Shown here one piece after another: positions 29,914 to 33,011 of a stretch of 34,522 nucleotides of DNA (its first letter is position 1; each line of letters begins with the position of its first letter). The position numbers were made by a program, and so were the translations under genes. The DNA is taken from positions 1 through 34,522 of IMG/VR virus record IMGVR_UViG_3300037589_000184; one strand, 5' to 3'. This stretch comes from a virus (taxonomy: Duplodnaviria; Heunggongvirae; Uroviricota; Caudoviricetes). The notes under the pieces are model-generated. The model did no database searches and had not been told where the DNA came from. It saw only the letters and a list, made by a program, of their open reading frames with translations.

Positions 29914-30167
29914 TTCAACTTTTTTCTGTACCCGTTCAACTTCTTCATGTTCTCCTGTAGGGACAGGTCCGTGCACACAACTTCAAAGTCCATTGCATCC
30001 ATTATGATTGGTTTTTGTGTTCTTATCCCTTCCGGAGTCTCCCCAACATAGAGCAATACTCCTTCCTTTCTGAAAAATTTCACAATATCTTCAAATGTCA
30101 GTCCGATTTCCGGATCCGGCAGGCTGTTGATATCGTATATTATCACCGGTTGTTGCTTCATCTCCAT
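29910..30167 (-). CDS. Hypothetical protein, about 85 aa (MEMKQQPVIIYD...)
   Basis: ATG 30167 is preceded by TTTAAAA; the stop is coupled to the HU-like gene. Confidence 0.55.
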   Translation of the reverse strand: MEMKQQPVIIYDINSLPDPEIGLTFEDIVKFFRKEGVLLYVGETPEGIRTQKPIIMDAMDFEVVCTDLSLQENMKKLNGYRKKLK

Positions 30168-30384
30168 CTGTTTTAAATTGTTCAAGATATATCTTTGGTC
30201 CGATGAACCTGTACCTAAGCTTGTTGCAAATGTAGACCTTTGATCCATCGGGGACCATCTCCACATCATGTGCATCCAACCAGTCCAAGACATCCTGTGA
30301 TATCTCTATTTTATGTCGAAAATCTGTTCTTTGGTTCTCGAGGTCATAGTATTCCGACCCCTCTACGGCCAATATGTAAGTCAT
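30091..30384 (-). CDS. Hypothetical protein, 97 aa
   Basis: ATGA coupling to the wHTH gene; the C-terminus overlaps the next gene by 77 nt. Confidence 0.55.
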   Translation of the reverse strand: MTYILAVEGSEYYDLENQRTDFRHKIEISQDVLDWLDAHDVEMVPDGSKVYICNKLRYRFIGPKIYLEQFKTDGDEATTGDNIRYQQPAGSGNRTDI

Positions 30385-30734
30385 TCCATCTCTATTAAGA
30401 ATTGATATCCCTGCCTCTGTGGGTCAGGTACTATGAAAGGGTTTACCTCGAACTGCTTTCCCTTTTTCGAGATATACCCCTTTTCCTCCAAGGCCCTCAA
30501 GTAGTTGCCCAGTCCCCCGGGCTTGAGTCCAAGCTTTGCCATCACCATTTTCCGGCACTGTGTCCCGAACCTGTCCTGATCGGCAATGTCCCCCTTCAAC
30601 GACATGAAGAGTGCGAGCACCTCTATCTCCTTGTTGGTCAACTGTGCAGGCAGGAACTGGTGCACAATATGCAGGTGCTTCTCATAATATCTTTCCGGTG
30701 CAAGTCCCCTCAACACCTTTACAATAGGTCTCAT
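30381..30734 (-). CDS. Winged helix-turn-helix DNA-binding protein (RepL/MarR-like), 117 aa
   Basis: LTNKEIEVLA...RKMVMAKLGLKPGGLGNYLRALEEKGYI is a wHTH pattern. Confidence 0.75.
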   Translation of the reverse strand: MRPIVKVLRGLAPERYYEKHLHIVHQFLPAQLTNKEIEVLALFMSLKGDIADQDRFGTQCRKMVMAKLGLKPGGLGNYLRALEEKGYISKKGKQFEVNPFIVPDPQRQGYQFLIEME

Positions 30735-31057
30735 ATCTCCCTGTGGTTAAAAACTTTTTTCCCTGTTGCAAGCTCGAACAATTTCTTGAAATCCTGATAG
30801 GACATCAACAGGTTCTGTGACCAGTAGTATCCTTCATCGATTGCCGACTTCACATAGACACAGTCCCTCGGCTCCCCGTTGAACCATACCTTGCCGCCCT
30901 TGAAGTCGATCACATTCGACATCTCTATGGTTATATTGGTGATATAATCATTTTCATGGGCAAACGGCACGTGGGCAATTCCCTGTAGCTCTTCCGTGAC
31001 ACCCCTTTGGTAGCTCTCCTCAAGATCTGAATGCACGGTCTCGAACTCCACTATCAT
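30731..31057 (-). CDS. Hypothetical protein, 108 aa
   Basis: ATGA overlaps on both sides. Confidence 0.7.
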   Translation of the reverse strand: MIVEFETVHSDLEESYQRGVTEELQGIAHVPFAHENDYITNITIEMSNVIDFKGGKVWFNGEPRDCVYVKSAIDEGYYWSQNLLMSYQDFKKLFELATGKKVFNHREI

Positions 31058-31287
31058 TTGACCTTCAATTTTATCTGTTTAAAGGTTCCTAACGGATGTC
31101 GGGCCATTATCGACATCACCTTTGCCATGGCCGTTTCCATATTCCCCTGTACATGGAACGTAAAGGTACCGAACACCTTTTCCAATACCAGTTTCCTCTC
31201 TGGTTCGAACCAAACGTAAAATCCCCCTGTTGCTTCATTCCTGTTGGCAGTATCATAGAAGACCATTTCAACATCTATTACATCCAT
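31054..31287 (-). CDS. Hypothetical protein, 77 aa; first gene of the coupled leftward operon
   Basis: Coupled to the next gene and preceded by a -7 box. Confidence 0.65.
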   Translation of the reverse strand: MDVIDVEMVFYDTANRNEATGGFYVWFEPERKLVLEKVFGTFTFHVQGNMETAMAKVMSIMARHPLGTFKQIKLKVK

Positions 31288-31309
31288 CTTATTACATTTT
31301 GAATTGAAA

Positions 31310-31317
31310 CAAAGTTA
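31310..31317 (-). promoter_or_regulatory. -7 element TAACTTTG ahead of the leftward operon
   Basis: Exact TAnnTTTG 22 nt upstream of ATG 31287; no TTG found at the expected -33 distance. Confidence 0.45.
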
Positions 31318-31373
31318 AAAATAAAATGAACACGGAAAAGAAAAAAGAGCTTAAAATTATTTAAGTCCCAATA

Positions 31374-31418
31374 TTAAAAGAAGAAAGGGACACCTTGTCG
31401 CCAGAGAGGATGTCCCTT
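31374..31418 (-). terminator. Intrinsic terminator (leftward)
   Basis: On the minus strand AAGGGACAUC...GGUGUCCCUU hairpin followed by UCUUCUUUU. Confidence 0.7.
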
Positions 31419-31440
31419 ATTGTGTAGTAATAACCATTAA

Positions 31441-31481
31441 TTGAAGAGCTTCAAATATAGACAAAAAACCTATACCAACAA
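31441..31481 (-). promoter_or_regulatory. Promoter TTG-N19-TATATTTG overlapping the palindrome TTGAAG-AG-CTTCAA
   Basis: -7 box at 31459-31452, TTG at 31481-31479; inverted repeat at 31441-31454. Confidence 0.55.
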
Positions 31482-31493
31482 CAGAAAAAGATT

Positions 31494-31772
31494 TTAATCA
31501 CAATTTTTCTCAAGTTTCTCCAATCTCTTGTTCTGTTCCAACCTGTCCCTTTCCCAGTCAGCTCTCAGACCAAGTATCTCCTGCTCGGAAAATTCCCTCA
31601 CTGCCTGTTCCACATGATGTATCTGTTCCTTGTTCTGTTGGCTCACCAACTGTTGGTACCTTGTCTCATCATAAAACTTAGTGGCCCCGAATGTCAGGGT
31701 CACTATGGCCACCACGAATGTAATGGCAGTCCTGTTGGTCAGGATTATCTTCCTATTGTCAGTTGTCTCCAT
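31494..31772 (-). CDS. Small membrane-anchored coiled-coil protein, 92 aa; possible lysis accessory
   Basis: METTDNRK...AITFVVAIVTLTFGA hydrophobic helix followed by a coiled coil. The ORF-track extension to 31916 crosses low-complexity A/T and C tracts and is rejected. Confidence 0.6.
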   Translation of the reverse strand: METTDNRKIILTNRTAITFVVAIVTLTFGATKFYDETRYQQLVSQQNKEQIHHVEQAVREFSEQEILGLRADWERDRLEQNKRLEKLEKNCD

Positions 31773-31861
31773 TGTGCAACAGAAAAAAATTTTTTTAAAA
31801 TTTTCTGGACACCAAGGTAAAAAATTTTTTGGAATTTTTGAGAGTGTGAACCTCCTTGAGA

Positions 31862-31876
31862 CAAACCCCCCACTAA
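31862..31876 (+). promoter_or_regulatory. Copy 1 of a 15-nt motif (CAAACCCCCCACTAA); candidate phage-RNAP promoter
   Basis: 13/15 identical to copy 3; 58 nt upstream of ATG 31935. Confidence 0.4.
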
Positions 31877-31934
31877 TTCCAAGGAAAGGGGATACCCCCC
31901 GTACCTTCAAATCCATAACCTAAAATCCTGCGGC

Positions 31935-32126
31935 ATGAAAACATTAGCTATCATCCTCATCTCCATCTTGGCCTTCTTCTCAGTGACCTACACTGTGTTC
32001 AGGGACACGTTCAGCCTTGCCTTCCTACTGTACTTTGCAGTGTTCAACATCATACTGTTCATCCACTCAGTGGTAGTGCCAGAGGTGAAGAGAATATTGG
32101 GGAAGGCAAACAATACCGGGCAGTAA
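31935..32126 (+). CDS. Small two-TM membrane protein, 63 aa
   Basis: Two hydrophobic helices and a basic tail; preceded by ATAACCTAAAA. Confidence 0.7.
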   Translation: MKTLAIILISILAFFSVTYTVFRDTFSLAFLLYFAVFNIILFIHSVVVPEVKRILGKANNTGQ

Positions 32127-32155
32127 TGTCCGGTAAACTGCTTGGAATACCGCAG

Positions 32156-32172
32156 CTCAAAACCCACACTTA
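32156..32172 (+). promoter_or_regulatory. Copy 2 of the motif (CT-CAAAACCCACACTTA)
   Basis: 31 nt upstream of ATG 32204. Confidence 0.45.
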
Positions 32173-32203
32173 TTACGAGTATTAACCTTAAAATTGTACA
32201 ATT

Positions 32204-32503
32204 ATGAGACTTTCGAACATCAAGGAACAACTTGGGATCCCCGTGTTCAACCTGAACTACTCGACAGACGAGACAGGTGCACGTGCCATTGACAGCACCA
32301 CCAACCAACCCACCAAGTGGATGCGGCACTGGGACAATGACAACCGTGTTGCCGTGAGCATCCACGAGGACACTGTCAAGGCCATCAAGGAAAACCCCGA
32401 GACACCCGACCTTGGATTGCAGACCGAGAAAAGGGAGGGCAGCAAAGGGGAGTACACATCCCACAGGATAGTGAAGTACACACCTGCGGAGATGACACTC
32501 TAA
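32204..32503 (+). CDS. Hypothetical protein, 99 aa, probably highly expressed
   Basis: C-ending codon bias, its own upstream motif and its own terminator; contains WMRHWDNDNRVAVSIH. Confidence 0.8.
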   Translation: MRLSNIKEQLGIPVFNLNYSTDETGARAIDSTTNQPTKWMRHWDNDNRVAVSIHEDTVKAIKENPETPDLGLQTEKREGSKGEYTSHRIVKYTPAEMTL

Positions 32504-32508
32504 CAGAC

Positions 32509-32538
32509 GGGAGGGCAGCAATGCCCTCTCCTTTTGTT
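32509..32538 (+). terminator. Intrinsic terminator with GNRA loop
   Basis: GGGAGGGCA-GCAA-UGCCCUCUC followed by CUUUUGUU, 5 nt after the stop. Confidence 0.85.
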
Positions 32539-32550
32539 CTCTGGCCTCCA

Positions 32551-32567
32551 CTCAAAACCCGCACTAA
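32551..32567 (+). promoter_or_regulatory. Copy 3 of the motif (CT-CAAAACCCGCACTAA)
   Basis: Directly after the terminator; 35 nt upstream of ATG 32603. Confidence 0.45.
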
Positions 32568-32602
32568 GTTCCAGTAGTAATAACCCTAAAACCACCACAG
32601 TG

Positions 32603-32683
32603 ATGAAAAACACGTTCTACATCCTCAGAAACGGTCTCGTGGTCTCCAATCTACAGGATTGGCAGGACTATGACAGAGACTAA
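32603..32683 (+). CDS. Micro-ORF, 26 aa (MKNTFYILRNGLVVSNLQDWQDYDRD)
   Basis: Preceded by motif copy 3 and TAACCCTAAAA; followed by a hairpin. Confidence 0.45.
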   Translation: MKNTFYILRNGLVVSNLQDWQDYDRD

Positions 32684-32687
32684 GACC

Positions 32688-32720
32688 GATGCCTGCTCCC
32701 CACGGCAGGTATCTTCTTTC
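32688..32720 (+). terminator. Hairpin / possible weak terminator
   Basis: GAUGCCUGC-UCCCCACG-GCAGGUAUC followed by UUCUUUC. Confidence 0.45.
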
Positions 32721-32753
32721 AACCATGTAGAGGTTGGGCAAACCTGTAGGGGA

Positions 32754-32909
32754 ATGGACATTGGTTCGGTGATTGCAAGACTTGAGGATGAGATTGCAAG
32801 GAAGACGGTGTACCTGTCACAGCTAAAAGAGCTGAGGGGAAATCAGGTTGGTGAACCGAACAGCAAAGATGACTCGGAATACGGCATTTTAAGGGAAATA
32901 GTGGAATGA
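32754..32909 (+). CDS. Small coiled-coil hypothetical protein, about 51 aa
   Basis: MDIGSVIARLEDEIARKTVYLSQLKELRG; the start is uncertain (ORF track gives 32670). Confidence 0.5.
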   Translation: MDIGSVIARLEDEIARKTVYLSQLKELRGNQVGEPNSKDDSEYGILREIVE

Positions 32910-33011
32910 TGGAGAGTGTCGGTCAGAACCCACACCACCCAAAACACCACTTTTTCTTTTTGCTCTTGACCACATACTATGCATATTAATAGCCGAAACT
33001 TAAAATTGCCC

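Follow-up and report, generated by a model that had tools for sequence, protein, structure and literature searches.

A probable boundary between two transcription units ahead of the structural genes of a crAss-like phage infecting Flavobacteriia

The work presented here concerns a short intergenic region in a stretch of phage DNA of 34,522 nucleotides (nt), IMG/VR virus record IMGVR_UViG_3300037589_000184, positions 1 to 34,522 (hereafter the window). The region lies on the minus strand, where it separates a gene for a 92-amino-acid (aa) protein (31494-31772) from the gene that opens the structural operon (31054-31287). We consider it probable that this site is simply the boundary of two minus-strand transcription units, at which a terminator closes the upstream gene and the late operon has a promoter of its own. 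The 92-aa gene, which varies between lineages, would be transcribed from the divergent junction upstream of it, and its RNA would end at the hairpin 31418-31385 and the adjoining U-tract, leaving a 3′ untranslated region (UTR) of about 115 nt. The terminator would thus shield the structural operon from upstream transcription, and the operon would start at its own promoter, TTAACTTTGTTTCA, read by host RNA polymerase as in Cellulophaga phage phi14:2. The features involved are as follows.

31494-31772, minus strand: variable 92-aa gene with one transmembrane helix and a coiled-coil-like tail, between the divergent junction and the late promoter
31374-31418, minus strand: intrinsic terminator, made up of the hairpin 31418-31385 and a T-rich tail
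31418-31385, minus strand: hairpin arms AAGGGACATCC...GGTGTCCCTT, read from the sequence
31384-31376, minus strand: tail TCTTCTTTT, directly after the hairpin
31318-31305, minus strand: late promoter core TTAACTTTGTTTCA, comprising the -7 box and a predicted +1 A at 31305
31317-31310, minus strand: -7 box TAACTTTG, 22 nt before the ATG at 31287
31054-31287, minus strand: first gene of the structural operon, an open reading frame (ORF) of 77 aa; the operon continues to the amidase, terminase, portal and major capsid protein genes

The genome to which the window belongs, as its first part, measures 98.5 kb and is rated complete by CheckV (100%). Its layout is that of a crAss-like phage, and the phage is one of Flavobacteriia. 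The long module on the minus strand descends from about 31916 to 1 and then wraps to 98516-78276; it includes the genes for an endolysin amidase, terminase, portal and major capsid protein and an ORF of 4176 aa, presumably the giant virion RNA polymerase, and its structural genes lie downstream of the studied site. The plus-strand module extends from about 31935 to 78252. Among cultured phages, FpV4 and Fpv20 of Flavobacterium psychrophilum are nearest (terminase identity 55%), and phi14:2 (locus L097) is a member of the same broad group. Relatives were gathered through the terminase gene, four loci at first and then 80 by profile. Intermediate relatives were reached through the 92-aa protein, whose homologues are confined to L098/L099 (73% identity) and L100 (69%; a protein of 91 aa).

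A 14-mer, TTAACTTTGYTTCA (31318-31305), stands at the head of the structural operon and occurs only once in this genome. More than 25 relatives, with terminase identities down to 55% and the cultured Fpv20 among them, have it in the corresponding place; it lies 14-35 nt before the first ATG of the operon in L001, L003, L004, L007, L008 and Fpv20 and holds the same position in L098 and L101. Among the 38 IMG/VR relatives in which 4.8 kb or more of DNA precedes the terminase gene, 20 carry it, with at most one mismatch, 1.9-4.3 kb upstream of that gene. The flanks are much less conserved, the exceptions being a TTG at a spacing of 19 nt (N19), the spacer sequence ATTAAT (in most relatives) and AAAATG 4-10 nt downstream. 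The 77-aa product of the first operon gene is seen only in this phage, and the first downstream protein is not conserved across the relatives, so the 14-mer is not hitch-hiking on coding sequence.

The sigma-A consensus of Flavobacterium pairs a -33 element TTG with a -7 box TAnnTTTG, which in F. psychrophilum lies at -12 to -5 (PMC9723704). When TAACTTTG is placed at -12 to -5, an invariant C becomes -1 and an invariant A becomes +1, a purine in a CA start; the 14-mer fits a sigma-A -7 box of the Flavobacterium type followed by a predicted CA start. From its sequence and position we conclude that TTAACTTTGYTTCA is the likely promoter of the structural operon, with a predicted start at 31305. 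The conserved motif lies 66 nt downstream of the hairpin, and a promoter in that place would mean that late expression needs no read-through of the hairpin. The initial annotation had described a second -7 box without a -33 element ahead of the first late gene, and this is borne out: the -33 TTG is absent in this phage and in L098, and is present at N19 in most relatives. Its absence weakens the sigma-A assignment without ruling it out, because, of the two consensus elements, the one at -33 is the less well conserved.

Sense copies of TAnnTTTG occur six times in the short spacers of the late module (31459, 31317, 25687, 23188, 16810 and 9767), against about 0.3-0.5 expected from our own estimate based on base composition, a strong over-representation. 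They include sites ahead of the portal gene and ahead of the gene preceding that for the major capsid protein. There is no enrichment genome-wide (80 observed, about 72 expected); the genome-wide count was dropped as evidence, and only the enrichment in late-module spacers is meaningful.

These boxes can be compared with the promoters of phi14:2. Its early genes are read by an injected virion RNA polymerase (10.1101/2020.03.07.982082), and its middle and late genes are sensitive to rifampicin and read by the host RNA polymerase (Drobysheva et al., 10.1101/2020.03.07.982082). Primer extension located promoters upstream of g070, g075, g108 and g110, and similar motifs precede the homologues of gp092 and of the portal gene in other crAss-like phages (10.1101/2020.03.07.982082). 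In the phi14:2 record we find that the four mapped sites read TTG-N20-TAnnTTTG(TA), and that the g110 and g108 promoters head the homologous operon. Both boxes of the region studied here, at 31459 and 31317, match TAnnTTTG, the upstream one with a TTG at N19 rather than N20. The downstream box lies at the head of the structural operon, as do the mapped g110 and g108 promoters, and the boxes before the portal gene and before the gene preceding the major capsid protein gene recall those of gp093 (portal) and gp092. In contrast to phi14:2, the late promoter here is an extended, nearly invariant 14-mer found once per genome and lacking a -33 TTG, and its start sites are predicted.

Seven nt past the promoter core there is an ATG-TAA start-stop (31292-31297, minus strand). 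An ATG at that offset is found in about 15 of 23 relatives (those listed are L017, L033, L036, L037, L039, L041, L045, L050, L007, L067, L079 and L098). It opens ORFs of only one to five codons, which end before or overlap the real start codon, and it reads ATG-TAA in this phage, L036, L062 and L098. It could be a conserved 5′-proximal start-stop or mini-ORF on the late mRNA leader, in hosts without Shine-Dalgarno sequences.

The second element of the proposed boundary is the hairpin, which the initial annotation had taken for an intrinsic terminator. Its predicted folding energy is -14.9 kcal/mol (z -3.4), a value equalled by one of 200 shuffled sequences, and a U-rich tract lies directly 3′ of the stem (CCCTT-TCTTCTTTT); nine of the 11 nt after CCC (TTTCTTCTTTT) are T. 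The L098 stem, GCAGGGG/CCCCTGC, differs from GGGACATC/GGTGTCCC here: at least four double changes leave a paired stem of 10 bp, and the two phages have the loop core CTCTGGC and the tail TTTCTTCTTTTA in common. The L098 hairpin is predicted at -17.0 kcal/mol against -14.9 kcal/mol here, the compensatory change being seen in two lineages only. A near-identical stem, AAGGGACATCC..GGTGTTCCTTTC, recurs on the plus strand at 45902-45931, directly after the ORF 45262-45888. The hairpin is the sole intergenic terminator-like site on the minus strand of the late module, and clean terminators end many plus-strand units. Judged from these features of its sequence, the hairpin is a genuine intrinsic terminator, as the annotation had it; its structure is visibly conserved, and its efficiency is something that we infer. 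It resembles other Rho-independent terminators in its GC-rich stem-loop and U-rich tract after a co-directional gene, in its compensatory substitutions, and in the reuse of the same stem sequence after another gene of the genome. It differs in lying 77 nt past the stop codon, farther than in the relatives, and in the two C that interrupt its U-tract. A scan with sigma-70 and terminator consensus models overlooked this hairpin, whose loop exceeds 8 nt, and that consensus is unsuited to the promoters of Bacteroidota; a scan of the whole window against Rfam at gathering thresholds returned no family.

The same order of gene, hairpin and promoter is found in relatives. In Fpv20, gp02 is followed by a hairpin (z -4.7), 53 nt, TTAACTTTGCTTCA and gp03, and in L001 a gene for a 132-aa protein is followed by a hairpin (z -5.3) and the same 14-mer. 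A strong hairpin with a T-run lies between an unambiguous co-directional gene and the promoter in Fpv20, L001 and this phage. In L050 and L057 the upstream ORF ends 37-39 nt before the motif and there is no hairpin. In L100 the homologue of the 92-aa gene is followed within a few nt by a TAATTTTG box and the next ATG, with neither leader nor terminator. Insulation by a terminator is common among the relatives and not universal.

Between the stop codon of the 92-aa gene and the hairpin lie the elements for which the initial annotation had proposed a regulatory role, and a re-reading of the minus strand found every one of them at the position that it had given.

31460-31493, minus strand: 34-nt spacer from the stop codon to the -7-like box, of which about 32 nt are specific to the lineage
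31481-31479 and 31459-31452, minus strand: candidate promoter TTG-N19-TATATTTG (TTG and box, respectively), with a predicted start near 31447
31454-31441, minus strand: palindrome TTGAAGCTCTTCAA, overlapping the end of the box
31437-31417, minus strand: mini-ORF ATGGTTATTACTACACAATAA, six codons (MVITTQ*)

According to that annotation, a promoter at 31459 gives a leader that halts at the hairpin, the halt is relieved either by a Q-like factor acting at the palindrome or by a ribosome at the stop codon of the mini-ORF, and read-through then drives the late operon. We regard this as very improbable. The geometry is right, in that the TAA of the mini-ORF does overlap the 5′ arm of the hairpin, and the downstream late promoter does lack a -33 element. 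In phi14:2, too, a promoter, a tiny gene and a hairpin stand in succession ahead of the later genes of the operon: the tiny gene g108, with its mapped promoter, is followed by a hairpin AAAGGA..TCCTTTTT and by g107 (41912-41964, minus strand). The proposal that leader read-through gates the late operon is nevertheless at odds with the strongly conserved promoter past the terminator, which this phage shares with more than 25 relatives and which is also kept by relatives that have neither the upstream gene nor the leader; and L100 has no terminator at all.

The two postulated means of relief fare no better. The arrangement shares with the lambda pR′-qut-tR′/Q system a promoter, a short terminated transcript and late genes, in the same order and on one strand, but differs in having no Q-family protein, an unconserved palindrome and a late promoter past the terminator; since this promoter is conserved, read-through of the lambda type is not needed. 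The Q-antiterminator families PF06530 and PF03589 found no match in the complete genome, with positive controls; PF06323 also found none there, though its control likewise gave no signal. An antiterminator unrelated to the Q families may exist, and nothing relevant on antitermination in crAss-like phages came up in a literature search. With trp/his-type leader-peptide attenuators the site shares a short ORF ending at the 5′ arm of a terminator hairpin. It differs from them in that the start codon is missing in the nearest relative, there is no alternative antiterminator hairpin and there are no regulatory codons; when the leader was folded, only a 4-bp auxiliary hairpin appeared upstream, and no antiterminator structure that would compete with the terminator.

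The mini-ORF ATG is absent in L098 and L099, which read TTA-GGTTATTACT compared with TTAATGGTTATTACT here, and by our rough estimate a six-codon ORF would end near the hairpin by chance with a probability of about 0.07; the mini-ORF is probably incidental. So is the palindrome: its predicted RNA fold is weak (-1.6 kcal/mol, z -1.2), a 6+2+6 palindrome within 200 nt is not unusual, and its counterpart in L098, TTGGCGGACTTCAT, is not palindromic. The comparison with relatives that the annotation had called for thus divides its elements. The terminator and the -7-like box recur in L098, the mini-ORF ATG and the palindrome do not, and L100 has neither leader nor terminator; the hairpin lies where the terminator of the 31494-31772 gene would sit. 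A switch built on the mini-ORF and palindrome is probably not what controls the late genes.

The upstream promoter itself, which the annotation had called a consensus promoter, fits the class mapped in phi14:2 and assigned to the host RNA polymerase. TTG-N19-TAnnTTTG occurs three times in the 98.5-kb genome and is intergenic only at 31481-31452; the wider TTG-N17-21 form occurs 14 times, three of them intergenic, overall near chance. The TTG taken as its -33 element is supplied by the spacer, of which about 32 nt are missing in L098/L099 and replaced by 2 nt. These two loci keep the -7-like box as TATTTTTG and draw their -33 TTG from a different sequence, in L098 at N20 within the last codons of the gene, with an A at the predicted +1. 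L100 lacks the element altogether, as does every more distant relative. A promoter here is plausible and unproven; if it fires, it would give a short terminated RNA and no leader for the late operon.

Several observations weigh against a plain boundary of two units. No promoter was identified for the 92-aa gene. The hairpin begins 77 nt past the stop codon, compared with 22-24 nt in Fpv20 and L001, and the extra sequence in between holds the full-consensus host-type promoter, whose -7-like box is kept in L098, with a TTG at N19 or N20 in both lineages. Between +1 and the hairpin, the sequence (CTTCA.TTA..GGTTATTACT) agrees with L098 better than does the spacer that separates the terminator from the late promoter, which hints at a function beyond that of a passive 3′ UTR. 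Finally, the late promoters of this phage and L098 are without the -33 TTG and the ATTAAT that relatives carry, so that the late promoter of this phage could be weaker or dependent on an activator.

One alternative is that the leader is an emptied or decayed cassette, that is, the promoter and terminator of a moron-like unit left behind after gene loss, whose RNA has no function. The place is highly variable: ahead of the late promoter, Fpv20 has a homing endonuclease gene and gp02, L001 has its 132-aa gene, L003 and L101 have nothing, and elsewhere among the relatives the slot of the 92-aa gene holds unrelated genes or none. The roughly 32 of 34 lineage-specific nt of the spacer and a duplicated 11-mer point to local rearrangement, and the whole module is missing from L100. 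The genome also contains a second succession of stop codon, TATATTTG, about 80 nt and terminator on the plus strand at 70850-70976, where the gene stop (TAAAATCT..) is directly followed by the box; a 20-codon ORF within the 80 nt ends inside the strong hairpin, which is probably a bidirectional terminator. However, the 5′ part of the leader has stayed closer to that of L098 than the adjoining spacer has, which would be surprising in junk, and no remnant of a lost gene was recognised. Decay of this kind strikes us as distinctly improbable.

Another explanation is a stand-alone small RNA (sRNA) gene of about 65-70 nt, from 31447 to about 31378, transcribed by the host RNA polymerase. The 5′ part of the RNA, GGUUAUUACU, would pair with the 5′ UTR of a tiny early unit on the plus strand and down-regulate it once middle and late transcription begins. 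The features relevant to this possibility are the following.

31435-31424, minus strand: 12-mer GGTTATTACTAC, whose first 10 nt are the longest block conserved with L098
32553-32711, plus strand: tiny early unit with motif, 5′ UTR, 26-aa ORF and hairpin
32553-32567, plus strand: early-promoter-like motif CAAAACCCGCACTAA, 6 nt before the pairing site
32574-32585, plus strand: pairing site GTAGTAATAACC in the 5′ UTR, 17 nt before the ATG
32603-32683, plus strand: 26-aa ORF (MKNTFYILRNGLVVSNLQDWQDYDRD), peptide conserved in L098 and L101
32690-32711, plus strand: hairpin and T-run closing the early unit

The 12-mer GGTTATTACTAC is perfectly complementary to the pairing site at 32574-32585 (plus strand), and it coincides with GGTTATTACT, the longest stretch of the leader to be conserved. 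In favour of such an RNA, a full-consensus promoter and a genuine terminator are present, and L098 retains the box with a purine at its predicted +1. L098 also keeps 13 nt of complementarity, in a shifted register and with indels on both partners, and in L101, which has no leader, the 5′ UTR differs at the pairing site and the peptide is kept. When the leader was shuffled, a match of at least 12 nt to other intergenic DNA arose with P = 0.03. On the other hand, the 12-mer match was found post hoc, and the element is missing from L100 and has only two carrier lineages, whose shared ancestry means that their conservation does not count as independent evidence. As DNA, the two 12-mers form a direct repeat, which makes a shared protein-binding site or chance equally possible, and the predicted +1 in this phage is a T. 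A ranking of target sites by duplex energy was dropped as support, the site being no outlier and not among the best in the genome. The putative RNA resembles trans-acting sRNAs with a 5′ seed in its length of about 70 nt, its single-stranded conserved 5′ segment, its 3′ terminator and its 12-13 nt of complementarity to an mRNA 5′ UTR. It differs from them in that its complementarity is marginally significant and limited to two related lineages.

We consider an sRNA gene at this site unlikely, and treat the complementarity between leader and 5′ UTR as a lead suggested by sequence, not a finding. Rather less likely still is the full proposition that a crAss-like phage would make a trans-acting RNA of about 70 nt from TTG-N19-TATATTTG, by means of the host RNA polymerase and ended by the hairpin, whose GGUUAUUACU segment would pair with the 5′ UTR of an early unit driven by the virion polymerase and encoding a conserved 26-aa peptide. 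If true, it would give the phage an RNA-based shut-off from early to late expression, and this possible short RNA complementary to an early 5′ UTR is the only part of the analysis with real upside.

The 26-aa ORF is too short for gene calling. The motif CAAAACCCNCACTAA ahead of it has six intergenic copies on the plus strand (31862, 32158 and 32553, and genome positions 40326, 42054 and 45006), most of them 30-70 nt before plus-strand ATGs, and recurs in Fpv20, L001, L003, L098 and L101; it is a candidate early promoter of the virion RNA polymerase.

Turning to the upstream gene, the 92-aa protein has no match in Pfam or PHROG. We preferred its start to that of a 140-aa ORF from 31916, which was rejected: the extension overlaps the junction element GGGGG..CCCC/GTGGGGGTTTTG, which is conserved as DNA in relatives without any ORF there. 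The divergent junction as a whole is conserved as DNA, with or without a downstream gene, in the order GGGGGnTAnCCCC, TTAGTGGGGGTTTTGnCTCAAGG, CACACT and a palindrome of the A6T6 type. The 11-mer TTTTTCTGTTG has one copy in the spacer (31488) and another 13 nt before the ATG of the 92-aa gene (31786). With its flank it reads AAAAT..TTTTTCTGTTG at 31776-31797 and 31478-31495 (minus strand), before that ATG and right after the stop codon, the second copy sitting in the spacer segment that is absent from L098. It was not adopted as a promoter element; there are four copies in the genome, two of them antisense within genes.

In most relatives a further element lies 100-150 nt upstream of the late promoter: an A-rich tract, AAAGAAAAAGAACCAAAAAGAAAACT, followed by a small hairpin with a GAAAAC loop and by CAAAGKTACA. 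It is absent from that place here, and the A-rich copy of this phage lies in the early module, at 39446-39475 (plus strand). A noncoding RNA and an origin-like element are both possibilities for it.

31819-31905, minus strand; L001:4250-4340, L003:3780-3880, L017:355-470, L101:1580-1710: copies of the divergent junction
L001:4890-5010, L003:4060-4175, L004:270-390, L007:1180-1290 and others: A-rich tract element

Searches for closer relatives yielded little. A blastn search with 30000-33000 had zero matches among phage records, and the 77-aa, 92-aa and 117-aa proteins as queries in IMG/VR returned no relatives. The 99-aa early protein as query found relatives at about 50-63% identity only, none nearer than L098. 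Eight further contigs with the 77-aa protein are 100% identical over 897 nt and hence uninformative for conservation.

All in all, the operon architecture at this site is ordinary for a phage, and the improbable sRNA gene adds one modest question to it. What is known of transcriptional control in crAss-like phages comes almost entirely from phi14:2. The analysis places the predicted start of the structural operon, in a large clade of phages infecting Flavobacteriia, at a nearly invariant 14-mer that resembles a host sigma-A -7 box and start site, and variable cargo genes just upstream of it are seen to be closed by terminators of their own. A tempting analogy with lambda antitermination is removed as unsupported. 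The data provide coordinates for mapping late promoters and terminators and, as a by-product, a clade-wide late promoter motif; and as the cultured phages Fpv20 and FpV4 share this layout of promoter and terminator, such mapping is feasible.

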